DNA from: an uncultured Chlamydiae bacterium
GTDB lineage: Bacteria; Chlamydiota; Chlamydiia; Chlamydiales; SM23-39
Length of the DNA stretch: 64,000 nt
Direction: 5' to 3'
Assembly (NCBI GenBank): GCA_963730605.1
Contig: CAVSSM010000001.1
Location: forward strand, 640,001-704,000
This document shows positions 6,613 to 63,917 of this stretch, one piece after another. Both the position numbers and the translations under genes were made by a program. The notes beneath the pieces are model-generated. The model was not told the origin of the DNA. It made no database searches and saw only the letters and a program-made list of their open reading frames with translations. Numbering within the stretch: the stretch's first letter is position 1; every line of letters begins with the position of its first letter.

Positions 6613-6776
6613 TATACCGCGCCCACTCATTTTGAGTGAATTTCGTTGAGCGCCTTTTACGCCCCAGCGCATTGCTCGATCTTGCTAACATCCTAAAGTT
6701 TACGGCGATCTCCGCAACGCTACTGGAGCGCAAAATCCGCTATCAAAATTCACACAACCTAAGCGGGCGCGGTATA
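6613..6776. mobile_element. 164-bp palindromic MITE, family A, copy 1
   Basis: Ends TATACCGCGCCC / GGGCGCGGTATA; nested internal inverted arms; closely similar reverse copy at 43767-43930. Confidence 0.9.
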
Positions 6777-7107
6777 GAAAAATCAGGGCTCTGCCCTGAC
6801 CCGCCAAAGGCTGCGGAAATACAAAAAAGATTTTTTTGTGCGGAGCAGATCCTTTGGAATCTTGGGATGAAGATGACGCTCAGGATTAGTCTTTAGGCTC
6901 TAGAGAAATATCCTATAGTCCGTTTTAAAAAAATCTGCAAAACGCTTCGCCGTTATCATTCATATTATTCTAAGTCTTTCATTATCAAATATTTTGCTTT
7001 TTACTCAATGCATTGAGTAAAATTGCTCAATGGATTGAGCAAATGGGTAATAGCTTGATTTTCAAACTCTTGATGAAGCGGCTGGGGGAGCCTAGAGGGT
7101 TCATTCC

Positions 7108-7728
7108 ATGACGCGCGGCATTTTCATTACCATCGAGGGCGGGGAAGGAGCGGGCAAGACGACCCTGATCGAGAGCCTCTATAAGCACCTTGTTGAAGCA
7201 GGACGGCAAGTCCTAAAAACTCGAGAGCCAGGCAGCACGCCCCTTGGGGAAGAGATCCGCAACATCCTGCTTCACCATAAGGGCCCTGTTTCTCCCTACA
7301 CGGAACTTTCCCTTTTCCTCGCCTCGCGCGCCCAGCATATCTCCGAATTGATCGCTCCCGCCCTAGAGGCAGGCATTGTCGTTCTTTGCGACCGGTTCAA
7401 CGATTCGACGATCGCCTACCAAGGGATGGCCCGCGGGCTTGGGATGGAAAAAGTCGCTTCCTTTTGTGAGTTCATATGTGCGGGATTGGAGCCAAATCTA
7501 ACCCTTTATCTCGATATTGATCCAAAACAGGGGATTTCCCGAGCGAAAAAGACCCATTCATTGGATCGGATCGAGGCTGAGGACCTCGTTTTCCATGCCA
7601 AGATCCGCAAGGGGTTTCTCGCCCTCCACAAAAAATATCCCCATCGCTTCCATCTGATCGATGCCGATCAATCATCTGTTGCGGTTTTTCGGGAGGCACT
7701 GGCGTTGCTGAGGCCCTTATTCCATTAA
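7108..7728 (+). CDS. tmk: Thymidylate kinase
   Basis: FITIEGGEGAGKTT P-loop, TREPG, LCDRF.DST.AYQG. Confidence 0.96.
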   Translation: MTRGIFITIEGGEGAGKTTLIESLYKHLVEAGRQVLKTREPGSTPLGEEIRNILLHHKGPVSPYTELSLFLASRAQHISELIAPALEAGIVVLCDRFNDSTIAYQGMARGLGMEKVASFCEFICAGLEPNLTLYLDIDPKQGISRAKKTHSLDRIEAEDLVFHAKIRKGFLALHKKYPHRFHLIDADQSSVAVFREALALLRPLFH

Positions 7729-8048
7729 GAGACTTTACGAACTTTGTTTCTGTCGATTTACCCTTCCTTTTCTTAACTTGCGGTTCCCTTGTTCGAATAT
7801 GCTTGGAATGAGCAACTTGTATACAAATTGATTCTTAGGAATTTAAGAAGAAAAAGATTTTCGAATATGGGGATTTTTTCTTTACTTTCTCATTCATTGG
7901 GATCTGGCCGTTTTTACGCGATAAAATGTTGGTTGTCAGTAACTTATTTTTGTTTTTTGGTTATTAGCAATATTAAATATCTTTTGAATTAAATATATAA
8001 ATTCGTTATAATTAATATGAATAATAAATAAAATAACTGGAGATTAAT

Positions 8049-10422
8049 ATGAGCTTTGAAGTAAAAGCAAGCGTTGGAGTACAAGAAACAGTATGGCGAG
8101 CTCTAAGAAACTGTGTGTCTAAGCACGCCAACACAGTACTTCCTGTCAGCGCAACCGTTTCTATTGTTGCGGGTACTACTGCAGGCGCTGTTATTGCTAC
8201 GGCTCCGATACTAGCGAGTGCAACAATAGTTACGGTAGCTTTAGGTGGAGTTGCAGCTATGTTTTTTGCGGTAGGAACGCAATTATTCCCGCTCAAAAAA
8301 ATGGAAACAGTGGATGCTAAATCGAGTACTATAAACGATTATTTCCTCGATACTACTACTCAGCTCTATGTTGAAAAACTCAATTTTAATACGGAAGAAA
8401 CTCGCAAATCAGCTGAAAAAGTTTTTAAAGATGTTCGGGCTGTCGATCAAGAAGCTCTCTACAATTCCATTAACAATGCAAAGTTTAAAATACGTGAAGA
8501 AAAAAGAATTAAGACAGTTCTTGATGCGACTGTGAACCTTCCAGCACCTGACAGAGCCGAATTTGTCAAGTTGCTAACTGAACTATATCAACCTAAAGAA
8601 TTTACAAATATTATAAATCTGCTCACAGATACTAATAATATTCCAAATCAAGCAGAAATACTAAGTATTCTCAAGCATTTAAAAGTTCTTAACGTGTCAG
8701 CTAGTGTAATAAATGGAGAGATAATAAAGTCTCTTGCGAAATTTACCGATGTTGATAAACGATTCAATATCGTCACATTGTTAAAAGATCTTGGATTAAA
8801 AAATGAGCCTATAGATGAAGCTCAAAGAGGAATTATCAATGGCATAAAATTCCTGAACAAATTTGATGAGGAAGGTGATAGAACAAACGTTGCTACTCGG
8901 ATAAAGAATCTTAAAATCCCAACGAATGATATGCCAAGCTTTATGACCGCTCTGGCAAACTCAATTCATGAATTAAATGACCTACATCATTTCTTAGACC
9001 AGGCTATGAAAATCAATGTGCCCGATAAAATCAAATGTGCTACTTATGCATGTTTAGCTGGCGTTGCTCAGAAAGAAAGAGAGGATTTTGTTCATTTTGC
9101 CAATCAATTATTGCAACCATCATTAAAAGACACCTCAAAATTGGATATCTTGAAAAAATTAGCGTCTATTCCTCCTCGAACTGAACATATTACACCAGCT
9201 CAAATTAAAAGAGCACGAGAAAATTTTGTAAATAAAGTGAAAAGAGATGAAGGTTTTTGTGAAATGATAGATATCTTAGGATTAGAGGCTACTTCATTCA
9301 ATTCTAAAGACTTATTAAAAATCGCTAAACAAATTCATAGTACAACATCAAAAGAAAAATTTCCTGATAAAGGTAGTGAAAATAGAGAGAAATTGCTGAA
9401 AATGGCCTACGATGTAATTAATAATTATGGGACGTTTAATGAATTCGAAAAGCATGTCATCCGTGCAATAGCTCCTAGGAGTGGTATGCTGTTTTTTACG
9501 TCGGATTCAATAAAGCAGAATGCATTTGAAACGTTATCTAAGTCGACTAAAGACCAGCAAAAATTATTTAACCTTATTATAAATCAGAAACGGATGGATG
9601 ATGTGGATGATGTAATCGATTTTGCGAAAGCCATCAATACGATACCAAAAAATGCATTTTTAAAAAATGAATTATTTGATTTTGATAAATTGAATACTAA
9701 TGAATTAAAAAAACTACTTGATAAATTAACTGATAAACAGTGCGCTGTCGTTATTCAGTATTTGGCAAATTTAATAGATTTAAATACAATTAATTTAGAT
9801 ATAAATACAATTTCCAAGATTAATACTGCTATCACTCGTAATATGAGTACAACTTTTCTCGAGTCAATACTGGACGTGCTAGACCTAAGTGCGGCGAGCG
9901 CGCCGGGGGGGGGGCAGCAGTGGTACCAGTGCCAGCGCCAGTGCCAGGAGCAGTGCCAGCAGTGGTACCAGTACCAGTGCCAGCGCCAGGAGCAGTGCCA
10001 GGAGCAGTGCCAGGAGCAGTGCCAGGAGCAGTGCCAGGAGCAGTGCCAGGAGCAGTGCCAGGAGCAGTGCCAGGAGCAGTGCCAGCAGTGGTACCAGCGC
10101 CAGCGCCAGGAGCAGCGCCAGGAGCAGGAGGAGGACCACCACCGCAGCCACCGCAGCTACAGCAGCCACCGCAGCCAGCAGCTACCAGCGCCAGCAGCCA
10201 CCGCAGCTAGCGCCAGCAGCCACGCAGACCCCACCGCAGCCACCGCAGCTACAGCAGCCACCGCAGCCACCGCAGCTACAGCAGCCACCGCAGCCACCGC
10301 AGCTACAGCAGCCACCGCAGCCTACAGCAGCCACCACAGCCGCAAGTAGCCAGACAAACATGGTGGCACTCCCTACAAACATGGTGGCACTCCCTAGTGA
10401 AATTTTTGGACAACAATTTTAG
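8049..10422 (+). CDS. Large AT-rich Inc/effector-like protein with a repetitive C-terminus; frame ambiguous after the G10 run (annotated frame stops at 10349)
   Basis: Long hydrophobic stretch at about aa 28-82, helical body, then GC-rich tandem repeats; alternative frames give (VPGA)n and (PPQPPQLQQ)n ending at 10422. Confidence 0.6.
9915..10342 (+). repeat. Tandem repeats: 12-bp GTGCCAGGAGCA array followed by 9/27-bp CCACCGCAG(CCACCGCAGCTACAGCAG) array
   Basis: Directly visible periodicity; preceded by G10 at 9905-9914. Confidence 0.92.
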
Positions 10423-19900: not shown

Positions 19901-20815
19901 TTAAATCAACTTGCCGGACCAGCCGAGTTTTTTGCGCAGTGTCGAAAAGTATTCGTGTCTGTGGAGGTTGACGATTTTGAAGGGTTGGATGGAGCGTTGG
20001 ATGGAGACGGAGTCGCCGCTTTTGAGGGGCATGGCGTCGAGGCCGTCGGCGCGCACGTCGATGGGATCGTAGGGGGAGGCGTACCGGATTTCGATTTTCC
20101 GGTCGGCGGTGAGGACGATCGGGCGGTTGGAAATCGTGTGTGGGCAGATGGGGGTGATAACGATGGCGTCGAGGGTAGGGGCTAGGATGGGCCCTCCAGC
20201 TGCGAGCGAATAGGCGGTGGATCCGGTGGGGGTGGCGACGATGATTCCGTCGGCGAGGAAGGTGTTGATATAGACGTCGTCTACTTGGATCGCAAGTTCG
20301 ATGAGGCTGTAGTTGTTTGCGCGGTGGAAGACGATATCGTTAACGGCGCGCAGGCGTCCTCCGCGTCGCGGGGCCCCCGCCGACGCATCGTCGGAAGGGG
20401 TGGCAGAGGCGTCGAGGTCCCCGAAGACGCCTCGTCTTTGGGGTAGATTTGCTTCTAGGGCGAGACGTTTATCGACGGTATAGGCGCCGCTCAAAAGGTC
20501 GGAGAGGCTGGGGAAGATGTCGGCGGCGGGGACGTCGGCCATAAATCCAAGGTGGCCCAAGTTGATCCCGAGGATGGGAGCGTCGAGATGCGAATATTGG
20601 TGGCTGATCCTGAGAAGCGTCCCGTCGCCGCCCATGGAGATGAGGAAATTGATCTCGCTGGGATCGACGCTGGATAGGGGCGCGGCGCCGATCGATTTGG
20701 CTTTCTCATCTTCCGCGGCGACGTCGATGCCTTTCGAGACGAGGAATTCCCTGATCTGAATCGCCAGTTCAAAGGAGTGCTTTTTCTTTTCGTTCGGAAA
20801 GAGCGCTATGATCAT
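19901..20815 (-). CDS. nadK: NAD kinase with a ~25-aa repeat-derived insertion
   Basis: [16 protein letters not shown] motif, [21 protein letters not shown]. Confidence 0.95.
20370..20444. repeat. Two copies of the ~30-bp hairpin repeat, in frame inside nadK
   Basis: GGGGCCCCCGCCGACGCATCGTCGGAAGGGGTGG and GGTCCCCGAAGACGCCTCGTCTTTGGGGT. Confidence 0.85.
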
Positions 20816-22936: not shown

Positions 22937-24213
22937 GGGTTCTTTATCTCTTTTGCCACCGCGGTGACATGGCCGTCATGCAGCCTGGCGATGAAGGTTT
23001 GGTTGGGTTGCAAAGACTTGGCTGAAAGGATAATCGAAGAGTCCTTTTCCATGAAGAGGATTGCATATCCTTTTTTGAGAACGTTATTGGGATTTAGAGA
23101 TCGGAGGTGTTCCCAAACCGCGGCAAGCCTTTCTCTTTTTTGGGAGACAATCATCTTGGCGGCGAATGTCATACGCCCTTCCAGAGGAGCGAAGCGATCA
23201 GAGAAATTTTTCACGCGCTCGCGGGGATCGAGCGCCCTTAACGCAAGGCGGGCGGAGTCGAGCTGTTGCATAGGCTGAGAGAGGATCGAAAGAGGAAAGC
23301 GGAAAATTGGGTGGGTCTTAAGCGCAAGGAGCCTTTCTTTTGCGTTGCCGAACTTGTGCCGGATAAATTGCCTGCCCGCTTGGACGGAACTCGAGAGCGC
23401 TTGGAGCAGATTGGCTTGCTCGGCAATCACGATTTCCGCCGCGGCGGAAGGGGTGGGAGCGCGCACATCGGCGACCCAGTCGGCCATCGTAAAGTCGGTC
23501 TCGTGGCCGACCGCCGAAATGACCGGGATTTTTGATTCGAAAATCGCTTTTGCCACGATCTCTTCGTTAAAAGCCCATAGGTCTTCAATGCTCCCGCCCC
23601 CTCTTGCTACGATCATGACATCGACGAGGTTCATCTGGTTGAATTCGGCAATGGCGCGGGCAATCTCCTGTGGGGCTTTATCGCCTTGGACCCGCACTGG
23701 GTTCAAGAGCAAATGAAAATTTGGAAATCGCCTTTTTAGTACATTCAAGATGTCCTTGATGACAGCCCCGGTTGGGCTCGTCACGACCCCGATCCGTTTA
23801 GGAAATTTAGGAAGCGGTTTTTTTTTCTCCGGGTCGAACCAGCCGCGTGAGGCGAGCTCAACTTTCAGCTGATGGAATTTCATAAGCAGCTCCCCCATGC
23901 CGAGGAATTGGAGTTCCCGAACAATGACCTGGTACTGGCCGCGAGGTGCATAAAGGCTAAGCTCGCCGGTTGCGATCACCTGGTCGCCGTCTTTCGGCAT
24001 CCTGGAGAGACGCGCTGCGCTTCCGCGGAAGAGGACGGCCGATACCTGGGCGCCCGCGTCTTTCATGCTAAAATAGAGATGGCCGGAGGATTGCAGCTTG
24101 AAATTGCTGATCTCTCCTTTGACCGAAAGGCCGCGAAAATTTGGCTCGAGGACCATTTTGATTGCGGCAGTCAGTTCGGATACGGTCAAAATTTGCATGA
24201 ACCTATCTTCCAA
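22933..24213 (-). CDS. xseA: Exonuclease VII large subunit
   Basis: GEISNF..SSGHLYFS.KD, RGGGSIEDLWAFNEE, SAVGHETD, RAPTPSAAAE. Confidence 0.96.
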   Translation of the reverse strand: MEDRFMQILTVSELTAAIKMVLEPNFRGLSVKGEISNFKLQSSGHLYFSMKDAGAQVSAVLFRGSAARLSRMPKDGDQVIATGELSLYAPRGQYQVIVRELQFLGMGELLMKFHQLKVELASRGWFDPEKKKPLPKFPKRIGVVTSPTGAVIKDILNVLKRRFPNFHLLLNPVRVQGDKAPQEIARAIAEFNQMNLVDVMIVARGGGSIEDLWAFNEEIVAKAIFESKIPVISAVGHETDFTMADWVADVRAPTPSAAAEIVIAEQANLLQALSSSVQAGRQFIRHKFGNAKERLLALKTHPIFRFPLSILSQPMQQLDSARLALRALDPRERVKNFSDRFAPLEGRMTFAAKMIVSQKRERLAAVWEHLRSLNPNNVLKKGYAILFMEKDSSIILSAKSLQPNQTFIARLHDGHVTAVAKEIKNP

Positions 24214-24527
24214 TTCTTAATGATTTATTTATGGTCGATTTTGAGGCGATTTTTCGTCGTCGACCGCCCAAAGTAAATATCGGGACGGTGATCTTTACGA
24301 GGGCGGAGGCGCGAAAAGCGCCCAAAAGCGTGCCGTAAAGGGATCGTGAAGAATTGGAGGATAGGTTCATATAGCCTGGGTGAATTTTCAACCAAGCCGT
24401 TATATAAATGCAATCTTCCTTGCCAATAGCGCCCGCGTCCGTTATTCTAATAGGAGTTTTTGAGTAGGAAAATGTCGCGAAAAAGGGGCCTCGTAGTCGC
24501 ATCGACTATGGGGAAAAAAATCCGACT

Positions 24528-26106: not shown

Positions 26107-27128
26107 TGCGCCCAGCAGCGTTGAATACTGGCCTAGAATTTCATGCGCTCGACCATATCGCCCCGCTCGCCGCGGCGCTCCACATGCCGCTGATTACGAC
26201 CGAAGAGCGGAATTTCGAATTAGCCCGGCGCTATTACCCGCAAATCGAAGTTCGGCACATGCCCGATCTAGAATCAAAACTCTCATCTCTCGCTGTTGAG
26301 TTCGATGCCCTTTTCGAGTGTAAATACTGGGCGCCGCATCTCAAATCGCTATTCCAAGAGCTTTATGGGAAAAAGATGCGACTTGTCTTTTGCCCGCATG
26401 GGCAATCGGACAAAGGTTTTATCGCTCCTCTTTTAGCTCCCTATGCAGGACAAGATATCGTTCTTCTCTATGGCGATCTCCACATCCAAATATTGAAAGA
26501 CCTCCAACTCTGGCCAGCGATCTCGAACTATGCGATCATAGGCAACTATCGGCTCCCATTTTATCAAAAATACCAGTCATTTTATGACGCCCTCTTAGAG
26601 AGGGAAGTTCCGGTCGACAAAAAAAATCGAACCCTCCTTTACGCCCCTACCTGGCAAGACGGCGAGGGTGGAAGCTCCTTTTTTCGATATGGGCCAAAGA
26701 TCATTTCCGAGCTGCCCAACGACTGGAACCTGATCGTCAAGGTCCACCCGCTTTTAGAGCAAAGGGATCCGGCCCATTTCTATTCCTGCGCCGTCCAATT
26801 GGAGAAAAAGCCGAATGCGATCCTCATCCATGAATTTCCTCTTGTCTATCCGCTCCTAGCCATTGCGGACGCCTATCTCGGAGACTCTTCGTCTGTCGGC
26901 TATGACTTTCTTTATTTCGAGAGGCCGATCTATTTTCTTCCAACAGGGCGGCCGACAAGGCTCCACTCCTCTGGCCGGGTCATCGATCCGGACAAACCGA
27001 TCTATTCCCAACTCGAGTCCTCCAACCCGTATAGGGAGGAGCAAAGGGCTCTTTACACCTATGCTTTTGGCAAGCCAATCGACGAAGAGACTTTGCGCGC
27101 CCGCATTGAGAGAGTGTCTACAATGTGA
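26106..27128 (+). CDS. CDP-glycerol glycerophosphotransferase-like protein
   Basis: LLYAPTW, VKVHP and DSSSVGYDFLYFERPI motifs typical of TagB/TagF-like proteins. Confidence 0.7.
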   Translation: MRPAALNTGLEFHALDHIAPLAAALHMPLITTEERNFELARRYYPQIEVRHMPDLESKLSSLAVEFDALFECKYWAPHLKSLFQELYGKKMRLVFCPHGQSDKGFIAPLLAPYAGQDIVLLYGDLHIQILKDLQLWPAISNYAIIGNYRLPFYQKYQSFYDALLEREVPVDKKNRTLLYAPTWQDGEGGSSFFRYGPKIISELPNDWNLIVKVHPLLEQRDPAHFYSCAVQLEKKPNAILIHEFPLVYPLLAIADAYLGDSSSVGYDFLYFERPIYFLPTGRPTRLHSSGRVIDPDKPIYSQLESSNPYREEQRALYTYAFGKPIDEETLRARIERVSTM

Positions 27129-27234
27129 GGTTCTGTCGATTTTTCGGTTCTTTTGAGCCGATTTTCGATTCAAGACTTGGGGGGCAATATCGACAACAGT
27201 ACATAGCCCCCATATTTTTACTCCCAATATTGTG

Positions 27235-27408
27235 TATAACCTGAGTTTTGGGTTCATTTGTCTATGAGATTCAAGGATATTTCGAGCATATTTTTGCGCT
27301 TTGGAGCCGAGAGCAATATCGGGACGAGCATCTTGCCGAGGCGAAAAGTCAAAAAGATGCCGAAAGAAATTGAAGCTCAGGCAAATGAACCCAAAACTCA
27401 GGTGTATA
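27235..27408. mobile_element. 174-bp TA-bounded MITE with long terminal inverted repeats
   Basis: ACCTGAGTTTTGGGTTCATTTGTCT ... AGGCAAATGAACCCAAAACTCAGGT (24/25 match), TATA at both ends. Confidence 0.88.
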
Positions 27409-27484
27409 CTGTTCCCGCTCAAAAAGTGTGAATCTGCTGGCGTCGGGCAGCCACTGAATTTGTGATCCGCCTGTATCGCTAAAA

Positions 27485-28195
27485 TTATAATGAAGCCGTC
27501 CGAATCCTGACAGCGACTTGTTCGTGGAAGGCGTTGTAGGCGATGTACTCTGCCTGGAATCCGTACTTTTCCAAAAATTCCTCAAATGCCTTGAACTCGT
27601 GATTGCGGAAATTCGGGTAGTTGTAGAACTCATCAAATAAAATGATCGTCTTGTCGACCATCTTCGGCCCAAGGAGATCGAGGCCTTGGGCTGCCGATTC
27701 ATAAATATCGCTATCGATGTGGAGGAAGGCGATCGGCTCGTCATGGAGCTCGAGGAACTTTGGCAGCGTTTCAGAAAACCATCCCTGTCTCAATTCGACA
27801 TTGAGCAAAAAAGAAGGAAGGGGCTCTCCTTTTGGCCAAGCAAATAGAGTTCCTGGGATGAGGAGGTCGCCTCGATCCCAGTCAATGGGCAGCCCCTGAT
27901 AGGAGTCGAAGGTGTAGATGGTTTTTCGGGGATTGAGGGCAGCGAGGAAGTTCGTCGTCCTGCCTTTGTATGTGCCCAGCTCGATAAAGAGCCCGTCTAC
28001 TGCGACCTGATCGGATGCGTAGCGAAAGATCTCGGCATCCGATTCAAAGGCTTTTCCTTTGGAGAGCACCGTCTTGACGAATTCGGCCGCATCGGCATTG
28101 GCCAGGAAGTGCCGGTTGCCTGGGTCCGTGTGAAGCACTTGGCTGCCGTCGAGGCCAAAGCCCGACCCGCCAAATAGGGAAAGGGAGCTTTTCAT
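27485..28195 (-). CDS. Class I SAM-dependent methyltransferase (TylF/MycF-like)
   Basis: IELGTYKGRT, FDSYQGLP, GWFSETLP, AFLHIDSDIYES, ILFDEFYNYP. Confidence 0.85.
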   Translation of the reverse strand: MKSSLSLFGGSGFGLDGSQVLHTDPGNRHFLANADAAEFVKTVLSKGKAFESDAEIFRYASDQVAVDGLFIELGTYKGRTTNFLAALNPRKTIYTFDSYQGLPIDWDRGDLLIPGTLFAWPKGEPLPSFLLNVELRQGWFSETLPKFLELHDEPIAFLHIDSDIYESAAQGLDLLGPKMVDKTIILFDEFYNYPNFRNHEFKAFEEFLEKYGFQAEYIAYNAFHEQVAVRIRTASL

Positions 28196-37873: not shown

Positions 37874-38009
37874 TCCAAAACTCCTTATCTGTATTATTGT
37901 GCCGCAAAAAGACCTTTGACGCAAGAACCTAAGGCGGCGTCTCGTTATTCTTAACAATGAACAGGACGAAAACCGGTATACTCAAAGAATATGAAGAATC
38001 GGGAATATG

Positions 38010-38248
38010 GCAAGGCTGCGGACACTTGAAAAAGCTCGGGGGTTCGAGCTTTTTCTAAGAAAGCAGCCCAGAATTTGAGCCAGGCTTTGCCGGCGCCGGG
38101 TCCGGGGTCCCCAAAAAACGCATCGTTTTTGGGGTGGGCCGTTGCAGCTCAACTTGAATAAGTTGAGCGCCGGGGTCCCCGAAGACGCAACGTCTTTGGG
38201 GTGGGGTGCAGGAGGGCTCAAAGGCTGTGGCTGCCCGACGCCGCCAGA
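38010..38248. repeat. Composite multi-hairpin element carrying two ~30-bp hairpin repeats
   Basis: Outer arms GCAGCCCAGAATTTGAGCC / GGCTCAAAGGCTGTGGCTGC; repeats at 38104-38137 and 38172-38204; extra hairpins GAAAAAGCTCG/CGAGCTTTTTC and GCTCAACTT/AAGTTGAGC. Confidence 0.75.
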
Positions 38249-38250
38249 AA

Positions 38251-42830: not shown

Positions 42831-43022
42831 TGGGTCTTAAGATCCACGCTTTTGAAAGCCGTCGAAAAGCGGCCAAAATAATCCAAAAACTCGGGCGTTC
42901 CCTCACTTTGTAGACACCCTCTCAATCTGTATGGAAAAATTTTTATTCGGGAATTTGTTGACTTAAAATTTAATTATGTAGATGCTTGGTTTTTTGCCAA
43001 TTAATTTTTATTATGAGGTTTT

Positions 43023-43784
43023 ATGTGTTCTCTCATTGCGAGCGCAACAAATCCTAATCTTGGGGCACTATCTTTAGCTAATGAACATTTGAATCGGGTC
43101 GTAGAAAAAATGGGCGCTTTAGGGCAATTTTCAGTGACTGAGTATGATCCGAATCCCATAAACATGCACAACAAAGGGATAAAAAACCAGATGAGAATCG
43201 GTGAGAAAATGGCTGATGTTCTAAATGGAGGCAATACCGAATTTACTGTTCAATCAGCGCTTGGACTTATGGCCCATGAAGTTGCTCATAGAATATTAAA
43301 ACACAATGAACAAACCATTGCATTTTTGCTTGAATCGCAAGGTATTCCTGTCAAATCGTTAGATGACCTGGTAGAAGTTTTATCAGGAACTCCTGAGACA
43401 CAGTCAGCAAAACGTCTTTTCATAGATTACCACAATTGGGCATCAGGAGAGACTCCAGAAAGTGTAGAGAAGCTTATAAACTCAGTGAATCAAAAAATAT
43501 CAGAATTTTATCGGAATCAAGAAAAGGAAGCGGATCTTCTTACAATGAGAGACTCCTATCTTGCACGAGGACTCAGAGACTATTTTGTAAGAATCATCGA
43601 AAATTGCGAAAAAAATCCTGAATTTCACTGCTCTGTCTCCTATGTGGATGATGAAAAACATCCATCGACAGTTAGCCGCATTCACTATATGACTCGTGCG
43701 CTTTGTCAAGAGTATCCAGAAGAAAATAGTGATATTTGCCCCGATACAGACTCGCGATATGGAAGCTATACTGCGACCGCTTAG
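43023..43784 (+). CDS. M48-like zinc metallopeptidase; stop codon supplied by the adjacent MITE
   Basis: AHEVAH (HExxH), E.EAD and HPS..SR motifs. Confidence 0.7.
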   Translation: MCSLIASATNPNLGALSLANEHLNRVVEKMGALGQFSVTEYDPNPINMHNKGIKNQMRIGEKMADVLNGGNTEFTVQSALGLMAHEVAHRILKHNEQTIAFLLESQGIPVKSLDDLVEVLSGTPETQSAKRLFIDYHNWASGETPESVEKLINSVNQKISEFYRNQEKEADLLTMRDSYLARGLRDYFVRIIENCEKNPEFHCSVSYVDDEKHPSTVSRIHYMTRALCQEYPEENSDICPDTDSRYGSYTATA

Positions 43785-43930
43785 GTTGTGTGAATTTTGA
43801 CAGCGGATTTTGCGTTCCAGTAGCATTGCGGAGATCGCCGCAAACTTCAGTATGTTAGCAAGATCGAGCAATGCGCTGGGGCGCAAAAGGCGCTCAACAA
43901 AATTCACTCAAACTGAGTGGGCGCGGTATA
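43767..43930. mobile_element. 164-bp palindromic MITE, family A, copy 2 (reverse orientation)
   Basis: Reverse complement closely matches 6613-6776; same length; TATA ends. Confidence 0.9.
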
Positions 43931-45882: not shown

Positions 45883-47205
45883 TTAAGAGCTTAACTCTGT
45901 TTTTTGACGAGGCTGGATCTTGATTTTCTTGATCGACCGCTCGTTCGAGGAGAGGACTTCGAGGTCGAACTCGTCATGGGAGAGGCGCCAGCCTTTGGAG
46001 GGAATCGTCCCAGCGCAGTGGTAGACGTAGCCCCCGATCGTCTCATATTCGGGATTGGGAGGGATCTTGAGGCCGAGGCGCTCCTCGATGTCGTGGATCG
46101 TCATCTTGGCGTCGACGATCCAGCCGCCGCCCGGCACTTCCCAAAATTCGTGTTCTTCTCCGACATCGTACTCGTCTTCGATCTCTCCGACAAGCTCTTC
46201 CAAAATGTCTTCGATCGTCACGATCCCTTCCGTCCCGCCGTATTCATCGACGATGATCGCCATGTGGATCTGCTTATTGCGGAACTCCTGGAGGAGCTGG
46301 GTGATCTTCTTATTTTCGGGGGCGTACAAGACAGGTTTGGCGATGGTCTGGAGCGGTTCTTTGAGATCCTGGTTGGGGTTGACGTAGCATTTAAGCAGGT
46401 CTTTATAGAGAACGACGCCCAAGATCTGATCGAGAGACTCGCGGTAGATGGGGATGCGGCTATACCCTTCCGCCGCAAAGAGCGGGGCCGCTTCCTGGAT
46501 CGTCGTATCGGCCGCGAGGGCATAGACATCGACGCGGGGGACCATGATCTCTTTCCCTACCCTTTCTTTGAAATTGATGAAGGAAGCGATCAGCCTTTGG
46601 TCAGTCGGGGCCAGGTGTTGTTGGAGATCCGATTCACTGATCATTTCGCGCAATTTCGCTTTGTCGGTGAGAAGGTCTTCTCCCTCAAGAGGGGCTTTCT
46701 TGAAGAGCGTCTGGTGTAATTGCAAAAGGAGCCCGACCAAAGGAAAAAGGAGTGTGAGGTAGATCGAGGCGAAGGGAGCTGCGAATTTCAACATGGGACG
46801 GATCCAAGCATTGGCCATCGTCCGGGCCAAGAAGTCCGCAAGTAGCGACACGGCGATGATGATTGCTCCGATCGCGAGCAGTGGGACCCAATCTCTTAAG
46901 CCAGAGATTTGGGAGATCATCGCCTTAAAATAGGAAATGCGTTCCACCAGAAAGAAAAAGGCGCACGTTGCATAAGCCAGTTGGAAGATGTGATTGGTCA
47001 ATGATATCGCAAAATAGAGATTCTCCCATTCGTTTTTTGGGAAAATCGATTTGAGGATCGAGCGGAAAAAGAAAAAGGGACGGCGCGGGGCGCGGAAGAT
47101 TTCCTTGGCCTTGAACTTGCCAAGGCGAATCAACGCAGAGGTGCAAATCGTCAAACATACAGTTCCAAACAAAAAAAACAGGGCAAGAATGAGGAGTTCG
47201 CTCAT
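45883..47205 (-). CDS. Hemolysin/CorC family protein (CNNM TM + CBS pair + CorC_HlyC)
   Basis: KEIMVPRVD, GYSRIPIY, MAIIVDEYGGTEGIVTIEDILEELVGEIEDEYD, YETIGG. Confidence 0.92.
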   Translation of the reverse strand: MSELLILALFFLFGTVCLTICTSALIRLGKFKAKEIFRAPRRPFFFFRSILKSIFPKNEWENLYFAISLTNHIFQLAYATCAFFFLVERISYFKAMISQISGLRDWVPLLAIGAIIIAVSLLADFLARTMANAWIRPMLKFAAPFASIYLTLLFPLVGLLLQLHQTLFKKAPLEGEDLLTDKAKLREMISESDLQQHLAPTDQRLIASFINFKERVGKEIMVPRVDVYALAADTTIQEAAPLFAAEGYSRIPIYRESLDQILGVVLYKDLLKCYVNPNQDLKEPLQTIAKPVLYAPENKKITQLLQEFRNKQIHMAIIVDEYGGTEGIVTIEDILEELVGEIEDEYDVGEEHEFWEVPGGGWIVDAKMTIHDIEERLGLKIPPNPEYETIGGYVYHCAGTIPSKGWRLSHDEFDLEVLSSNERSIKKIKIQPRQKTELSS

Positions 47206-47786
47206 GGAGTGATTTTTAATTTAAGCTGTTTGAGATGATCCATACACTTTTTCTCCATTTTGCGCATCGATCGTTTCGCATTGGGCTCAATATCATCGTA
47301 GCCAATCAGGTGGAGGATGCCATGGATGAGATAGAGAAGAGTCTCTTCATAGGGGCGGGCGGGATCGAAGCGTTGCGCCGCAAGAGGGCAGATAAAAATA
47401 TCCCCCAAATATACCGCGCGCGTCCAGTCTTGACAGGTTCTGACCGGCTGCGACTTTGCAGAATCGATCCTCGTCGTCGCCCTTCCCAATTCGGGAATGG
47501 TGCTCCTCCTGCGAATCAATTCTGCTTTGTCTCGCGCGGTCATAACATGCCAATCCTGACCGCGCGCAGTATGTACCGCGTCGACTGGAAAGGAGATGCA
47601 ATCGGTCAGGCTTGGGTCGTTAAAGAATTCAACATGTAGCTGGCAGATTTTTTTCTCAGAGACAAAATAAACAGAGATTTCTTCGCACTGAATGCGAAGA
47701 AATGAACACAACCCCCCTAATACTCTTCGAACGGAGCTTTTAGAAATGGGGAGAGCCTTTTGTCGATTGTATATATTGAAGTTCAC
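47202..47786 (-). CDS. ybeY: rRNA maturation endoribonuclease YbeY with a 54-aa element-derived insertion
   Basis: TDCISFP...LGDIFIC and HGILHLIGYDD motifs, separated by an extra 54 aa. Confidence 0.92.
   Translation of the reverse strand: MNFNIYNRQKALPISKSSVRRVLGGLCSFLRIQCEEISVYFVSEKKICQLHVEFFNDPSLTDCISFPVDAVHTARGQDWHVMTARDKAELIRRRSTIPELGRATTRIDSAKSQPVRTCQDWTRAVYLGDIFICPLAAQRFDPARPYEETLLYLIHGILHLIGYDDIEPNAKRSMRKMEKKCMDHLKQLKLKITP
47410..47573. mobile_element. 164-bp palindromic element (family B) inserted in frame in ybeY
   Basis: TATACCGCGCG / CGCGCAGTATG ends; 164 minus 2 = 162 bp = 54 codons; core shared with the lptD and mpg elements. Confidence 0.88.
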
Positions 47787-48121: not shown

Positions 48122-48204
48122 AGGAATCTCCAGTACAGGGCATTATTATGGACAATTTGGCAAATCCTTGCCAGTAACTTCCTAAGATCCTGGATACAAG
48201 TATC

Positions 48205-49887: not shown

Positions 49888-49911
49888 CTCTTCATGATGG
49901 CGGCAGGGTTG

Positions 49912-50661
49912 TTATTTGGCAACCTTCGCGACGAACCGATAGGGAAGATCCACGCATTCTTCCGCGTAATCGATCCCGATGCGTGGAGTGGTTTGGAACT
50001 CTTTGATCTTGATTCCAGGCGCGATCCAAACCGCTTCCGATTCCGAATCGAGCGGGATCCCTGTGAGCCGAACGGTAATGCCGAGGGCAGCCGTCAAGGC
50101 TCCAGGGCCGCCTGTAAGCGTTGGGTCAAGCCGGGTTTTCTTTCGCCTTTGCATCATGATCTCGATGCCGTGGGTCGGCTGTATCGTCCGGACGAGGATC
50201 CCATGAGGGACGCCGGCATCTCCGGTGACGACGTTGAAAAGGGCGTGGATTCCATAGCAAAGATAGACGTAGGCGACGCCGCCTTGCCGGTACAGCACTT
50301 CCGTTCTAGGCGTCCTCCGCCCTCCATAGGCATGGCTCGCTTTGTCTTCCACTCCTGCGTAGCTTTCGGTCTCGGTGATGATCCCGCCGGTCAGATGTCC
50401 GTCGATGCGGGTAAAGAGACTGCAGCCAAGCAGGTTCTTCGCCGCTTCAACGACATCGGGATTCCGAAAGACAAGACGCTCTAACCCCGCCCTCCAAATA
50501 GATGACAAATGGCTTGCTGCGGCTTTGTCATATCGATCCTCTTCGCTCGCCTTGGCTTTAAGCAATGGCCTTCGCTCATACGGAACGCTTCGCTTCGATC
50601 TGACTTTCACACCCCTTCCGACGATGCGTCGGTGGGGACCCCGTGCGCCTTGCTGAGCCAT
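49912..50661 (-). CDS. mpg: 3-methyladenine DNA glycosylase (MPG/AAG family); first ~60 aa encoded by an inserted element
   Basis: ITETESY, YVYLCYGIH, GPGALT.ALGI, TPRIGI. Confidence 0.9.
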   Translation of the reverse strand: MAQQGARGPHRRIVGRGVKVRSKRSVPYERRPLLKAKASEEDRYDKAAASHLSSIWRAGLERLVFRNPDVVEAAKNLLGCSLFTRIDGHLTGGIITETESYAGVEDKASHAYGGRRTPRTEVLYRQGGVAYVYLCYGIHALFNVVTGDAGVPHGILVRTIQPTHGIEIMMQRRKKTRLDPTLTGGPGALTAALGITVRLTGIPLDSESEAVWIAPGIKIKEFQTTPRIGIDYAEECVDLPYRFVAKVAK

Positions 50662-50691
50662 TTGTTGCCACCTCTTTGAATGCCGGGGTTA
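50482..50691. mobile_element. 210-bp TA-bounded palindromic element (family B) at the rnr-mpg junction
   Basis: TAACCCCG / CGGGGTTA ends, CAAATGGCT / AGCCATTTG arms, GCTGCGGCTTTGTCATATCGATCCTC core; nested hairpin repeat at 50610-50642. Confidence 0.85.
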
Positions 50692-52833
50692 GTAACCGCG
50701 ATCTTTCTTTTGGGCTGGGCGGGTGGGGGGAGGGGGGATAATGGACCATTCTGTTTGTTGGAGGGTATAGTCGATGCGATCCAAACGGACGAATATGGTT
50801 TGGCCGACCGCGTAGCTTCTTCCGGACCTCGAGCCGCGGAGCGTCATCGCTTGAGGATTGAATTCGAAATAGTCGTTGCCGATTTGAGAGATGTGCAAGG
50901 AGGCTTCGAGATCGAAAAAGGAAACTTCGAAAAAGAGGGCAAACGGTTTGATGCGGGTGACTGTTGCCTGATAGGGGCGCGTCAAGTCTTCGGCGAAATA
51001 AGTTCCGGCAAGCCGGAGTTTTTTCAAAAGCTTGACCGAGCTTTCGGCCCTAAAGGAGACTCTCTCCTTTTCTGAGCATTTTAAGGCGATGGCGTCCAAA
51101 TCGGCATCGTCTGGCAGTTCATCGCAAAGAAGCCGCTGGATGATCAGGTCGGTGTAGCGCCGGATGGGGCTCGTGAAATGGCAGTAATGCTCGAGCGCCA
51201 AACCGTAATGGCCGATATTTTCTGGCGAATAGGCGGCAAGCCTCATGCTCCGGATGAAGCTGATCGAGAGTTGGGAGAGCAGGGGTGAGTCCTTCGCATC
51301 TTGGAAGAGTTTTTGGATGTCGCGGTGAGTGGGATCGGCAGGAAGCTTAAACCCTAGAGTTCTCGCAAATGCGTAAAAGTCTTTAAACGATTCGGCAGAC
51401 GGCTCTTCATGGACCCGGTAGATAAGAGTTTTGCCTTGGCGCTGGAGATGGGATGCCGCAATCTCATTGGCCTTGAGCATGAACTCTTCAATCATCTGAT
51501 GGGTGATATCGTATTCGATCCTCTCGATCCGAAGAGGGATGCCATCTTTGTCGACAATTAGGACGTTATCAGGCATGGAAAAATCGATGCTGCCGCGCTC
51601 GAACCTTTTCCGCTTCAAAATATGGCAGAGCTCCACCATCAGCTCCAGCAGGCTGGAATGGGGCGATTTTTCCTTTTTCTCGAGGACGGCCATGGCTTCT
51701 TTGTAAGTGAAACGCTTGCGGCTTTTGATCACGGTGCGTCGGATCTCATAGCGGATCATATTGCCGTCCCCATCGAACTCGGCGAGAACCGATTGGGCGA
51801 GCCTCTTCACATTGGCTTTCAGGCTGCAGAGCTCGTTGGAGAGCTCTTCGGGCAGCATCGGGACGCACTGACCGGGAAAATAGGTCGAATTGCATCTCTC
51901 AAAGCTTTCCGTATCGAGGTGGCTTCCCGGAAGAACGTAGTGGGCGACATCGGCGATATGGACGCCGAGATGATAATGTCCCTCGCTATCTCGGGTAAGC
52001 GATATGGCGTCGTCGTAATCGCGGGCTGTATCGGGATCGATCGTAACGCATTCGAATCCGGTCAGATCGAGCCGGTTTTTACACTCTTTGACCGAAACCT
52101 TGGCCCCGTAGGCTCTTGCCTCCTCGATCGCTTCCACGGAAAAGCCGTCCGGCAGATCGAACTCGGCAATGGCCGCTTCGGTGTCGATCGAAGGATCGGA
52201 GATGTTGCCGATCATGCGGGTCAGCGTTGCCTCCACAAGGTCCGATTCACCGCCCCAAGAAACGATCTTACAAATGACCCGGTCTCCCTCTTCCAACGTT
52301 ATCCCTTTGCTGGCCTTAAGCAAAATAAGTTTATCTGATCCCAATAAAGGAGAAAACGCCTTGTAGCCCCGCCCCGATTTGCCTACGACCGTTCCCGCCA
52401 AAGAGGTGCGGCTCCTTTTCAAGATGGCGATGACGGTCCCTTCGGGCCCTTTTACGGTGACAATGGGTTCGATTTCGATTTCGACCTCGTCCCCGTCGAC
52501 CGCATCGTTCAACCTCTGTTTCGGGATAAAGACATCGGGACCCGCGGCGTTCTTGACGAAGCCGAACCCTTTCGGATGGACGCTGATCGTCCCGGTCACC
52601 AAGGCCGCTCCGTTCGGCGCCGTATATTTATTGTTTTGGAGCACGAGGGCTTTGTCCTCGATCAATTGTCCCAAAACGACCTTCAATCGGTCTCGATGGA
52701 TGGGAGCGACTGCAAGCTGTTCGACGAGTTCTTCGTAAGTGGCCGGTTTGTAGCGTCTTCCTTGGATGAACTGGAGGATGGTCTTTGCGAGGTTTTGGGA
52801 GAGCTTCTCCCCCTTCTTTCTTCTGGATTTCAT
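50689..52833 (-). CDS. rnr: Ribonuclease R
   Basis: Cold-shock domains (HPKGFGFV), TIDPDTARDYDDA, HFTSPIRRYTDL, C-terminal S1 domain. Confidence 0.95.
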   Translation of the reverse strand: MKSRRKKGEKLSQNLAKTILQFIQGRRYKPATYEELVEQLAVAPIHRDRLKVVLGQLIEDKALVLQNNKYTAPNGAALVTGTISVHPKGFGFVKNAAGPDVFIPKQRLNDAVDGDEVEIEIEPIVTVKGPEGTVIAILKRSRTSLAGTVVGKSGRGYKAFSPLLGSDKLILLKASKGITLEEGDRVICKIVSWGGESDLVEATLTRMIGNISDPSIDTEAAIAEFDLPDGFSVEAIEEARAYGAKVSVKECKNRLDLTGFECVTIDPDTARDYDDAISLTRDSEGHYHLGVHIADVAHYVLPGSHLDTESFERCNSTYFPGQCVPMLPEELSNELCSLKANVKRLAQSVLAEFDGDGNMIRYEIRRTVIKSRKRFTYKEAMAVLEKKEKSPHSSLLELMVELCHILKRKRFERGSIDFSMPDNVLIVDKDGIPLRIERIEYDITHQMIEEFMLKANEIAASHLQRQGKTLIYRVHEEPSAESFKDFYAFARTLGFKLPADPTHRDIQKLFQDAKDSPLLSQLSISFIRSMRLAAYSPENIGHYGLALEHYCHFTSPIRRYTDLIIQRLLCDELPDDADLDAIALKCSEKERVSFRAESSVKLLKKLRLAGTYFAEDLTRPYQATVTRIKPFALFFEVSFFDLEASLHISQIGNDYFEFNPQAMTLRGSRSGRSYAVGQTIFVRLDRIDYTLQQTEWSIIPPPPTRPAQKKDRGY

Positions 52834-52836: not shown

Positions 52837-52999
52837 TAACCCGCTGTGCAAATATGAGACATTTCTTCAGGACGTAGATTGTCCATCTCTGCGTTGCCCT
52901 GCTTCGACAACCCACTTCGGGGTTGCCTGCATCGGGCGCCTTGATCTGAACAATCTCCGTTTACCTGCATAAATTGTCTCCTATTTGCGTAGCGGGTTA
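52837..52999. mobile_element. 163-bp TA-bounded MITE directly upstream of rnr
   Basis: TAACCCGCTGTGCAAATATGAGACA ... TGTCTCCTATTTGCGTAGCGGGTTA (22/25 match). Confidence 0.88.
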
Positions 53000-53162
53000 T
53001 ACGGCACCCGGTCAGCTTTGGTGAATTTTGGTGAGCATCTTTTGCGCCCCAGCGCATTGCTCGCACTCGCAAACTTTTTAAGTTTCCTTCGTGTCTCCGC
53101 AACGCTACTGGGACTCAAAATCTGCTGCCAAAATTCACCAAATCTAAATCGCGCACCGTATA
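52998..53162. mobile_element. 165-bp palindromic MITE, family A, diverged copy 3
   Basis: TATACGG / CCGTATA ends; shares CGCCCCAGCGCATTGCTCG and CTCCGCAACGCTACTGG with copy 1; shares its left TA with the previous element. Confidence 0.85.
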
Positions 53163-56985: not shown

Positions 56986-57924
56986 TTATCCGAAACTCGC
57001 ATTATTGAGAATTTTGAGTAAGGGGTCGTGGATATGGCCGTTTGTAGCGAGGATCGGATTTTTTCCATGAGCTAAAAAGGGGGTTTTGTCCCAATGGGTG
57101 ACCCTTCCTCCCGCCTCGGCAACGAGAAGCTGTCCTGCGGCACAGTCCCAAGGACTCAAGCTCACTTCGAAAAAACCTTCGAAATGGCCAGCCGCCGTAT
57201 AGGCGAGATCCAGGGCCGCCGAGCCGAGCCGGCGAATCGGGACGCCGAGCTTGAGGACGTCGATGAAATGATCGATGCAATGGAAAGGGTTGTCAGCAAG
57301 ATTATAGGGGAATCCTGTCGCTAATATCGATTCTTCGAGCCTTAAAACAGGCGAGACGCGGATGGGCTCGCCGTTCAAAAAGGCACCGTTGCCCAATTCT
57401 GCGACAAAAAGCTCATGATGGAGAGGCTGATAGACGACCCCGGTTTGGATCTGCCCGTTTTTCTCAAGCGCGATGCTGACTGAGAAGATGGGGATGCCGT
57501 GGGCGAAATTGACCGTGCCGTCTAGGGGATCGATGATCCAGAGGAGGTCATCTTCTCCCCAAAGACGATGCGTCTTTGGGGGCCCCTCCTCTTTTTCCTC
57601 TTCTTCTCCCCAAAGACGATGCGTCTTTGGGGGCCCCTCCTCTTTTTCCTCTTCTTCTCCCCAAAGACCATGCGTCTTTGGGGGCCCCGGTCCCGTAGCG
57701 CCGCTCTCTTCGGCAAGAAAGCGGGAGCCGGGGTCTATTTGCTTGAGCGCGCCGATGATGCTTTTTTCGGCTTTGATGTCATAGTCGGTGACGAGATTGT
57801 GCCTCCCTTCTTTCGAAGAGATGGTAAAACTCGTCCTGAACCCTTTGCGGAGAATAACGCCTGCCTCCAAAGCGGCGTCGATCGCTGCAAGTGTCAGGCG
57901 CGAGAATGTTTCTTTTTTAACCAA
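56986..57924 (-). CDS. suhB: Inositol monophosphatase (SuhB family) with a ~46-aa repeat insertion
   Basis: LVTDYD, LAEES, WIIDPLDGTVNF, RRLGSAALDL, WDCAAG; start uncertain (TTG at 57924). Confidence 0.92.
   Translation of the reverse strand: MVKKETFSRLTLAAIDAALEAGVILRKGFRTSFTISSKEGRHNLVTDYDIKAEKSIIGALKQIDPGSRFLAEESGATGPGPPKTHGLWGEEEEKEEGPPKTHRLWGEEEEKEEGPPKTHRLWGEDDLLWIIDPLDGTVNFAHGIPIFSVSIALEKNGQIQTGVVYQPLHHELFVAELGNGAFLNGEPIRVSPVLRLEESILATGFPYNLADNPFHCIDHFIDVLKLGVPIRRLGSAALDLAYTAAGHFEGFFEVSLSPWDCAAGQLLVAEAGGRVTHWDKTPFLAHGKNPILATNGHIHDPLLKILNNASFG
57551..57688. repeat. 51-bp tandem repeat (2.7 units), each unit containing the ~30-bp hairpin, in frame in suhB
   Basis: TCTTCTCCCCAAAGACGATGCGTCTTTGGGGGCCCCTCCTCTTTTTCCTCT at 57551, 57602 and 57653. 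Confidence 0.93.
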
Positions 57925-58418
57925 AATAACACCCAATAACGGCGAGCTTTGCCCCAAAGATAGAGGAATCCCGAAAAGCAAATCCAAGCGTAGATCGCGT
58001 CGATCAGGGACGTTGCCAGCCAGTCGATGACGACCCATTGTCCGGAAATAGAGACTCTTCTGTCAAAGAGAAAAAGGAAAAAGATCTGGAGAATGGAAAC
58101 AAGGAGAGAGGCAAATGAGGCAAATACCGTCAGATGAAGGGGGCGGTCGTAGAGAAAACGGTTCCGGAAACGAAATAAAACGGCTGCGGCCAAGGTATAA
58201 GAGATCGGATAGAGGCCGAAAGGAAAATCGGATAGAAGATCGACAAGGACTCCAGCCGCCGCTGCTCCTAGTAGAGGTTTGAAGAGGTCTTTTTGGGAAG
58301 GCGAGAGCAAGACAGCGAGAGCGATCCAAGGAACAAAGGCGTTTAGAGGAACGCCTGGCACGTCCACCCCTTGTAGGAACAAGACGGCCGTAGAGAGGGC
58401 AAAAGAGAAAATCAGCAT
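57894..58418 (-). CDS. MreD-like integral membrane protein
   Basis: About 5 TM segments with AGVLVDLLS..PFGL pattern. Confidence 0.6.
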   Translation of the reverse strand: MLIFSFALSTAVLFLQGVDVPGVPLNAFVPWIALAVLLSPSQKDLFKPLLGAAAAGVLVDLLSDFPFGLYPISYTLAAAVLFRFRNRFLYDRPLHLTVFASFASLLVSILQIFFLFLFDRRVSISGQWVVIDWLATSLIDAIYAWICFSGFLYLWGKARRYWVLFWLKKKHSRA

Positions 58419-63114: not shown

Positions 63115-63126
63115 CTAAACTCCATG

Positions 63127-63732
63127 TTAATAAGCCCCTTTCGGGAAAATCATTCGGATCGCTGTTTGCAAGATCACACGGATATCGAGCCAAAAGGATC
63201 TGTGGTCGACATAAAATTCTTCGAGTTGAATGCGCTCATTCAACGTGAAGCAGTTTCTCCCTTTGACGATCCAGAGGCTGGTCAGTCCAGGCCGGACCGA
63301 GAGGATTTTCGGGGCTTTTTCTTTCAGATAGTGGACGACCTCGTCCCGCGTCAAGGGGCGGGGGCCGACAAGACTCATGTCTCCAAGAAGGACGTTGATG
63401 AATTGGGGAAGCTCGTCGAGCGAGGTCTTGCGCAGCCATTTTCCGACCGATGTAATGCGGGGGTCTGCCTTTAACTTGTAGTAGGTTTTCCATTCCTGCA
63501 TGAGGATGGGGTTGCTGGCAAGGAGGGTCTGTAATTTCAGGTCGGCGTCGGAGTGCATCGTTCTGAATTTCAGGCAACCGAACGGCTTTCCATCTTTGCC
63601 GACGCGCGAGTGGGCGTAGAAAATGGGGCCGGGGGATGAGAGCTTCACCGCAGCGGCGCATACGAGAAAGAAGGGAGCGGCTAAAACCAGTATGGCGAGA
63701 CTGAATAGTACATCAAAAAAGCGTTTAACCAT
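63127..63732 (-). CDS. Bacterial sugar transferase (phosphoglycosyltransferase)
   Basis: KRFFD, KFRTM, DPRIT.VG.WLRKTSLDELPQF.NVL.GDMSLVGPRP, RPGLT. Confidence 0.93.
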   Translation of the reverse strand: MVKRFFDVLFSLAILVLAAPFFLVCAAAVKLSSPGPIFYAHSRVGKDGKPFGCLKFRTMHSDADLKLQTLLASNPILMQEWKTYYKLKADPRITSVGKWLRKTSLDELPQFINVLLGDMSLVGPRPLTRDEVVHYLKEKAPKILSVRPGLTSLWIVKGRNCFTLNERIQLEEFYVDHRSFWLDIRVILQTAIRMIFPKGAY

Positions 63733-63800
63733 AAGGGATCGAAGGTATCTCAAAAAAGAAATTTCCGCAACGGGGCTATTCCTTTTAGTGAGAGGCCAAC

Positions 63801-63917
63801 ATGCACCACAGAGACACGGAGAAAGAAGAGGCAGCACAGAGAGAAAAAATTTGCTTTTTTGCGAGGGCAAAAAAGCAGTTGCATCCTCTGTGCTACCTCT
63901 CTCCCTTTGTGGTGCAT
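63801..63917. repeat. ~117-bp nested palindrome (REP/MITE-like) upstream of the sugar transferase
   Basis: ATGCACCACA/TGTGGTGCAT, AGAGGCAGCACAGAG/CTCTGTGCTACCTCT, TGCTTTTTTGC/GCAAAAAAGCA. Confidence 0.78.

Follow-up and report, generated by a model that had tools for sequence, protein, structure and literature searches.

How does a conserved bacterial enzyme come to carry a palindromic stretch of DNA in the middle of its reading frame, and what could have put it there? The question is raised by a 64,000-nucleotide stretch (the window; positions 640001-704000 of contig C1, CAVSSM010000001.1) from an uncultured Chlamydiae bacterium whose assembly, here called G000, comprises 2.22 Mb in 12 contigs and is 83% complete. 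Eight self-complementary, TA-bounded elements, E1 to E8, lie in this window, two of them inside genes; the initial annotation had likened them to Rickettsia palindromic elements (RPEs) and proposed that the lineage possesses its own family of repeats that builds new protein sequence. [quoted passage not shown]

Eight hairpin elements and their families

All eight stretches are present where the initial annotation had placed them, and each folds as a long imperfect hairpin, with folding z-scores (best strand against 30 dinucleotide shuffles) of -6.6 to -15.1. TA starts and ends every stretch except E5, in which one damaged end reads CA. The elements and the two genes that host internal copies are as follows.

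E1, 6613..6776, unstranded: 164-bp MITE, intergenic, directly after the gyrA stop; E4 family
E2, 27237..27405, unstranded: 169-bp MITE, intergenic, youngest large family
E3, 31799..32067, unstranded: in-frame multi-hairpin MITE of 269 bp within the CT351-family gene, adding 89 codons
E3 host, 29918..32275, minus strand: CT351-family outer-membrane beta-barrel gene (NF052235, E 5.5e-76, below the curated cut-off)
E4, 43767..43930, unstranded: 164-bp MITE forming the last codons and stop of an M48-like gene (43023-43784)
E5, 47410..47573, unstranded: 164-bp MITE in frame in ybeY, adding 54 codons in a loop between two strands
E5 host, 47202..47786, minus strand: ybeY (PF02130 and TIGR00043, both above cut-off)
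E6, 50482..50694, unstranded: TAACCC-type MITE at the rnr/mpg overlap
E7, 52837..52999, unstranded: 163-bp TAACCC-type MITE directly upstream of the rnr ATG
E8, 52998..53162, unstranded: 165-bp MITE sharing a TA with E7; E1/E4 subfamily

Five elements are indeed 163-165 bp long. The very different interiors that had been ascribed to them are found in E5 and E7, which are unrelated to E1, E4 and E8 (49-53% identity), but not in the latter three: E1 and E4, which lie in opposite orientation, share 93% identity, and E8 has 76-78% identity to this pair. Because E1, E4 and E8 form one family, the five similar lengths come from three families. E2 is likewise a real element, but the TATA previously read as its right boundary is part of a different family's truncated element, which starts at 27405. 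The elements are multi-copy genome-wide rather than unique to this locus: E1 and E4 each have 27 near-full-length matches (76-100%), E8 also has 27 (5 at 98-100%, the other 22 at 76-79%), E2 has 26 copies at 98-100% and E7 has 7 at 97-100%, while E3 has three, each inside called frames, and E5 and E6 have one full copy each plus clear partial relatives.

The two gene-internal elements, E5 and E3, add 162 and 267 bp and preserve the frame, as had been proposed, although the E3 host, previously called lptD, is instead the LptD-like CT351-family gene. The roles assigned to elements at gene edges also stand. In addition to the stop that E4 provides, E6 supplies the stop of rnr and the sole in-frame start upstream of the mpg domain (mpg, 49912-50661), and the ATG inside it is the likely mpg start in G000, judged from the frame. 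E6 is common to the congener G003, in which one end is 3 bases longer, and is missing from another relative, G006; its arrival took the frame away from an upstream ATG that serves, or could serve, mpg in G006. The G006 mpg locus (L231) has a 172-bp hairpin of its own, from another family, near the mpg start and with a stop in the mpg frame. Elsewhere in G000, elements at stop/start overlaps (G000:C1:727328-727485 and C2:162362-162524) lengthen two products C-terminally by about 53 residues, those of kdsB and of a 474-residue gene.

Insertion at TA and the testimony of empty sites

The empty E1 site in G003 is a single TA, and the empty sites show that the elements were inserted with duplication of this dinucleotide. 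Twelve whole-element in-frame inserts were compared with congeners; seven internal calls (L067, L068, L069, L070, L071, L073, L080, L082 and L084, minus the near-start ones) were left out of this count. Empty sites were found for 11 of the 12, the twelfth, L072, being common to G003. The hosts with empty sites are ybeY, the CT351-family gene, uppP, the genes for E1 dehydrogenase and E2 acyltransferase (enzyme names, distinct from elements E1 and E2), recD2, L074 and the sulfatase gene L083, together with three genes entered near their starts: folC after codon 2, the O-antigen-ligase-like L085 after codon 5 and the TLC-like L079 after codon 2. Directly upstream of the O-antigen-ligase-like gene, G003 has a different MITE (L386) that G000 lacks.

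The ybeY insert is missing from 20 of 21 aligned relatives, including G003 at 83-92% identity. In the remaining one, G002, the tyrosine codon that E5 entered is also interrupted at its TA, by a different hairpin of 167 bp. This hairpin family, with 80 matches listed on both G002 strands, is missing from G000, G001, G003 and G006, so two independent insertions offer the simplest reading of the ybeY sequences, in which a single codon would have been hit twice. The E3 insert, in turn, is missing from all 21 orthologs that cover its site (22 were aligned). These empty orthologs of ybeY and the CT351-family gene rule out the alternative that the segments are ancient protein loops.

A further alternative is that the genes with inserts are dead, or that the inserts are artefacts of assembling a long-read metagenome bin. 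The gyrB/gyrA region is broken into several frames, which may reflect indel errors, and the assembly is incomplete at 83%; nevertheless, the frames stay open through all inserts, the flanks of in-frame inserts are 79-95% identical to the G003 orthologs, and short-read contigs match the E5 junction and the whole of E6 without difference, although the source samples themselves may have supplied these runs. Inserts of this kind recur in many independent assemblies, and we regard an explanation by gene death or misassembly as very improbable.

Candidate mobilisers

The elements combine short length, multiple copies, terminal inverted repeats and a single-TA empty site with the absence of a transposase of their own, as expected of IS630/Tc1 MITEs. 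G000 itself has 29 DDE_3 matches, which fall into three IS630 types. The resident type A is present in 14 copies (1121 bp, an intact 347-residue frame, TA at varied sites); its ends agree with those of MITE end clusters T9 and T10 at 22 of 26 positions and of T4 at 20-21 of 26, and do not match the eight window elements. Types B and C lie in CTAG and GTAC contexts, and in a by-eye comparison no window element matched them. One type A element, L105, contains a TAACCC-like stretch about 60 bases inside its right end, possibly an older end, and a composite MITE at G000:C1:446767-448344 contains a 1244-bp IS of another type.

Complete insertion sequences with ends matching the window elements were found in other genomes, for E1 and for E6/E7. 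A metagenome scan with a generalised end pattern returned 73 loci, one of which, L258, is a 1175-bp IS630 on a metagenome contig with helix-turn-helix and DDE_3 frames. One of its ends is identical to the right end of E1 (28 of 28 bases), and its ends match those of E4 at 26/28 and 24/28 and those of E8 at 17-21/28. A phylum scan for the TAACCC pattern identified L373 in G203, 1118 bp long with a 349-codon IS630 frame; its ends match E7 at 18-19 of 28 positions, and the E6 ends are similar. Multi-copy families, empty congener sites and IS630 elements with matching ends thus bear out the assignment to IS630-type MITEs made in the initial annotation.

We posit that IS630 transposases, whose identity is suggested by the matching ends, would act in trans to excise non-autonomous MITEs of several families and insert them at TA, which is duplicated. 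Most insertions into genes would then be purged; those that survive would come from families with a net length divisible by three and a stop-free frame, and would sit in loops, in domain linkers or beside gene ends. Their frames are observed to be open, and they are presumably read through as 54-107 extra residues. After insertion, small hairpin cassettes are gained or lost, as the changes at shared sites show, probably by recombination between copies.

Abundance and spread

A de novo scan of the genome for TA-bounded inverted-repeat pairs of up to 400 bp gave 188 pairs, as compared with 4 in shuffled DNA. The repeats cover about 2.5% of the genome in some 280 regions, and 234 paired-end elements sort genome-wide into 38 end clusters. 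Many sites in G000 also carry further 150-190 bp hairpin families with ends not of the TA type, and other IS types of 0.8-2 kb.

The notion of a family peculiar to this lineage does not hold: there are many families, and they are found across at least two chlamydial families of genomes. The E2 end pattern occurs in 39 of 401 genomes and the E6/E7 pattern in 43 of 401 (reversed controls, 0); neither was found in the 30 genomes of family f20, judged by size probably the Chlamydiaceae. An exact 32-base end pattern has 43 loci in 11 GTDB genomes. Depositors label the element relatives Chlamydiae or Rhabdochlamydiaceae, and some "Verrucomicrobiae"; together with the CT351-family match of the E3 host gene, these labels give good support for a chlamydial host. 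A search of a plasmid collection with the insert family gave no match.

The RPE-like behavior that had been suspected is apparent in the proteins. A profile built from four insert peptides recognized 64 proteins among 3596 candidates, a count that includes four from G000 itself and a few from very close relatives. The peptide lies within the chain in 37 of these, at the N-terminus in 15 and at the C-terminus in 12, and among 29 of the 64 that were scanned the hosts include MutS, CarA, DnaX-like, MenD-like, PGK, transaldolase, RecC, Omp85, SufBD, a radical SAM enzyme and a P-type ATPase. At the DNA level the peptide family was detected in at least 18 of 300 genomes scored, mainly from two families, a floor because two candidates were scored per genome. 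Not every family is widespread in proteins, since the recD2 insert peptide gave 5 hits among 99 candidates. NCBIfam holds models of RPE peptides. Eight insert peptides had no relevant match in NCBIfam, nor three in Pfam; Rfam had no match in the window and, for elements at 7 loci, returned one tRNA only. A match to an already described repeat family, which would have spoken against the initial annotation, was not found in these three collections.

Modular interiors

Elements that occupy one site can differ inside. E6 is at the same site in G003 and G000 and contains different internal cassettes; at the L072 site, a 72-bp in-frame cassette is present in G000 and missing from G003; and in P0004, a 95%-identical CT351-family protein, the E3 insert has been shortened in frame. 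In two copies from other genomes, the interior is flipped relative to the arms. A 25-bp hairpin cassette has 102 copies, against 1 in shuffled DNA, split evenly between the insides of paired-end elements (51) and the remaining genome (51); among the free copies are in-frame ones in nadK and, threefold, in the inositol monophosphatase gene. From these arrangements it seems likely that recombination between copies underlies cassette exchange. The 25-bp cassette also forms tandem arrays, of at least 8 copies at G000:C7:8766-9085 and at least 5 at C1:317547-318081.

Inserts in host proteins

A structural model of YbeY from a 6-sequence alignment has a mean predicted local distance difference test (pLDDT) score of 71.5; the core is confident and its fold matches solved YbeY structures, and segment 69-124, the insert, falls under 50. 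An intact predicted core beside a disordered insert points to a tolerant site. The length of this loop varies among other chlamydiae. The E2 acyltransferase insert lies between the lipoyl and E3-binding domains. An intron/intein-type check by a scan of the flanks gave 8 sites, 4 of them in frame and, on inspection, the other 4 at gene junctions. An apparent enrichment of damaged TA ends in coding copies (3 of 8 intact at both ends) was dropped, as the set is small and the non-coding set used for comparison includes mis-bounded elements.

Could the inserts serve their hosts? The peptide might act as a shared binding or degradation tag, or the RNA hairpin might allow RNase III-type control of transcript stability. 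One peptide is found again and again, in 64 proteins; in a relative, conservation of the E3 insert is 93% as against 95% for the rest of the protein; and one strand folds better in most families, all of which would suit such a role. However, the hosts have no function in common, the peptides encoded by different families and frames are unrelated, as the two inserts at one ybeY codon illustrate, and close orthologs manage without inserts. Nor do transcribed strands favor the stronger-folding strand, which shows no preferred orientation between co-oriented genes. An adaptive role is therefore unlikely, and the inserts are most likely tolerated passengers.

Another possibility, going beyond passive filtering of single insertions, is that some families have been selected to stay translatable: copies sheltered in genes would survive and give rise to later bursts, which would make codon-multiple length and an open frame heritable traits of the element. 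Among 32 complete copies of the E1-dehydrogenase insert family (11 GTDB genomes, nine length classes of 164-299 bp), 30 have a codon-multiple net length, and outside long frames 17 of 19 do, with the same frame kept open in 13 of 19. Of 36 end clusters, 25 have an open frame, where hairpin-preserving shuffles predict 10.3. Third positions vary most: among 16 pairs of observed copies, with six frames tested and four irregular copies dropped beforehand, the synonymous share is 0.35 versus 0.25 (p 0.04) in the sense frame and 0.46 versus 0.29 (p 0.002) in the antisense frame, which amount to one signal because both frames share third positions.

These frame counts overstate the case, however, because clusters and copies are related rather than independent, and hairpin constraints can mimic codon patterns. 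Of the 32 copies in the E1-dehydrogenase family, 13 are in a coding context; for the wider metagenome end pattern, 23 of 44 are codon-multiples and 1 of 44 is gene-internal; and the two largest families (25 and 20 copies) have no internal copy at all. We thus rate selection for a heritable, frame-neutral lineage as somewhat less probable than its absence. The fuller proposal, that environmental chlamydiae host IS630-mobilised MITEs selected to be translatable, which retain codon-multiple length and an open frame also outside genes, swap in-frame hairpin cassettes after insertion and independently hit the same permissive codons, is offered equally tentatively; if true, it would describe an RPE-like system with candidate transposases, in which the entry of palindromic elements into proteins and their reshaping are directly testable.

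Points of tension

The claim that the elements build new protein sequence holds as far as the open reading frame goes, and coding copies are a filtered minority. Among 282 repeat regions of at least 100 bp, 178 are intergenic, 84 extend across gene ends and 20 are gene-internal, as against 64% of TA sites that lie inside called genes. This is compatible with purging of most gene insertions under the IS630-MITE reading, and several observations nonetheless weigh against that reading. The gene-internal share of 20/282 is low in itself, the gene calls behind the counts come from a Markov caller of our own making, and the two largest families, E1/E4 and E2, have no gene-internal copies among 20 and 25, respectively. 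Insertion at TA does not account for every host: the uppP insert is of another class, as its ends are non-TA, and several G003 orthologs of coding sites have an empty site without TA, so later substitution must be assumed. Four short-read DNA assemblies over 31300-51200 yielded no joint that skips a whole element among those listed, and at their thin cover the joints are uninformative on current mobility. As to the mobiliser, the L258 ends match E3 at 17 and E5 at 15-16 of 28 positions; transposases of the L258 or L373 type were not found in the 83%-complete G000 (best 36% identity, or no hit), so that ends and target are the basis of the IS630 assignment, a basis shared with the pneumococcal RUP, also assigned to IS630 by its ends (PMC2229807); and no transposase with E2 ends was found in 30 loci with 11 neighboring frames scanned, although E2 represents the youngest large family. 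Finally, the Rickettsia precedent and the minority of coding copies lower the weight of a case that stands above an ordinary MITE case through a matching autonomous IS630, verified in-frame core-gene inserts, apparent parallel insertion at the same codon and in-place cassette exchange.

Other repeats and genes in the window

Beyond E1-E8, the window contains the following hairpin features.

nadK cassette pair, 20369..20444, minus strand: free hairpin cassettes in frame inside nadK (19901-20815)
Extra MITE, 24197..24371, unstranded: 175-bp hairpin of neither TATAC nor TAACC type, z -15.3
Truncated MITE, 27109..27212, unstranded: overlaps the stop of the 26106-27128 gene
Truncated TATAC-type MITE, 27405..27486, unstranded: adjoins E2
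TATAC-type MITE, 37977..38250, unstranded: two internal hairpin cassettes, right end decayed
Half copy, 42861..42922, unstranded: family of the element truncated at 27109
Inositol monophosphatase cassettes, 57548..57700, minus strand: three tandem 51-bp hairpin cassettes in frame (gene 56986-58038)

The nadK cassette, which also occurs inside 51 MITE interiors, is not in nadK of G003 or G007. The 24197..24371 element belongs to end cluster T6 (14 copies), and G003 is without it at this site. The inositol monophosphatase insert comprises three 17-residue repeats, and orthologs in 5 congeners skip query residues 118-162. Positions 63860-63917 hold merely a weak pair of short hairpins. In 2427-6317, gyrB and gyrA are broken into several overlapping frames, through either long-read indel errors or decay of the copy. 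Two long frames at 8049-10349 and 16383-19898 have no Pfam match and contain 9-/12-base tandem and glycine-rich repeats. A 202-bp repeat is present three times (73-91%) at 53280-55281 across three adjacent genes, the first of which has TPR matches.

Comparison with known systems

Comparisons with other repeats draw on parts of PMC10969869, PMC2229807, PMC3767692, PMC9723776, PMC11602168 and PMC5896051; statements on RPEs come from these rather than from the original RPE papers. The literature searched, in full text and with subscription papers mostly outside it, gave no account of such elements in chlamydiae, though the supplement of PMC11602168 may list them. The word stem "chlamyd" is missing from the main text of a MITE review and of the MITE census of 183,232 genomes (PMC11602168), and the available parts of the Rhabdochlamydia genome paper treat IS expansion and not MITEs or palindromes.

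Among other IS630/Tc1 MITEs, RUP of Streptococcus pneumoniae, Correia/NEMIS of Neisseria and the enterobacterial ERIC share with the chlamydial elements terminal inverted repeats, TA ends and a long RNA hairpin (PMC2229807). RUP, unlike them, lies between genes and carries stops in each of the six frames, whereas ERIC and the 107-bp form of Correia give rise to fusions (PMC2229807); here, internal inserts are found in core enzymes of many genomes, and a single genome contains separate MITE sets for at least three IS630 clades. The MITEs QMITE1 and QMITE2 of Coxiella burnetii, likewise an intracellular bacterium, also encode peptides and extend across gene ends; they differ in having variable direct repeats instead of TA and in mostly overlapping gene termini rather than forming internal in-frame inserts (PMC5896051). 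The chlamydial cassettes are hairpins that also occur alone inside genes, a feature that sets them apart, in a comparison by description only, from the pneumococcal BOX, which similarly has exchangeable cassettes between fixed ends. BOX elements have been named as bearing open reading frames (PMC10969869).

The closest likeness is to the RPEs, which are 100-300 bp palindromic repeats of several families in an obligate intracellular bacterium, with some copies in frame in unrelated conserved genes, where they leave a recurring peptide (PMC10969869, PMC2229807, PMC3767692). In Rickettsia gmk, the insert is translated in an active enzyme (PMC2229807), and in R. conorii "nearly half" of the RPEs are inside genes (PMC10969869), as compared with 20 of 282 regions here. 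The two systems differ in other respects. The chlamydial elements match no Pfam, NCBIfam or Rfam model, a comparison made with models and not directly with RPE DNA; they combine TA duplication and IS630 elements with matching ends with modular interiors, whereas RPE target duplication is tabled as unknown (PMC2229807); and the host, which has a CT351-family gene and whose element relatives are labelled Chlamydiae or Rhabdochlamydiaceae, some "Verrucomicrobiae", falls outside Rickettsia and its near relatives. Palindromes inserted in frame had so far been a curiosity of Rickettsia, for which the reviews covered identify no mobiliser (PMC10969869, PMC2229807, PMC3767692).

The chlamydial case brings together complete IS630 elements with matching ends, bursts that are young, alleles without the insert in close relatives and core enzymes with dozens of natural insertion sites. 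It could account for unannotated inserts of 54-107 residues that fall outside the Pfam and NCBIfam models of chlamydial proteins, and it provides a route to test how selfish DNA adds protein loops, along with a natural map of insertion-tolerant sites. Judged from its sequence and by the features tested, the chlamydial system acts like the RPEs and is a separate set of IS630 MITEs, which would make it an independent case of in-frame palindromic insertion in another phylum of intracellular bacteria.

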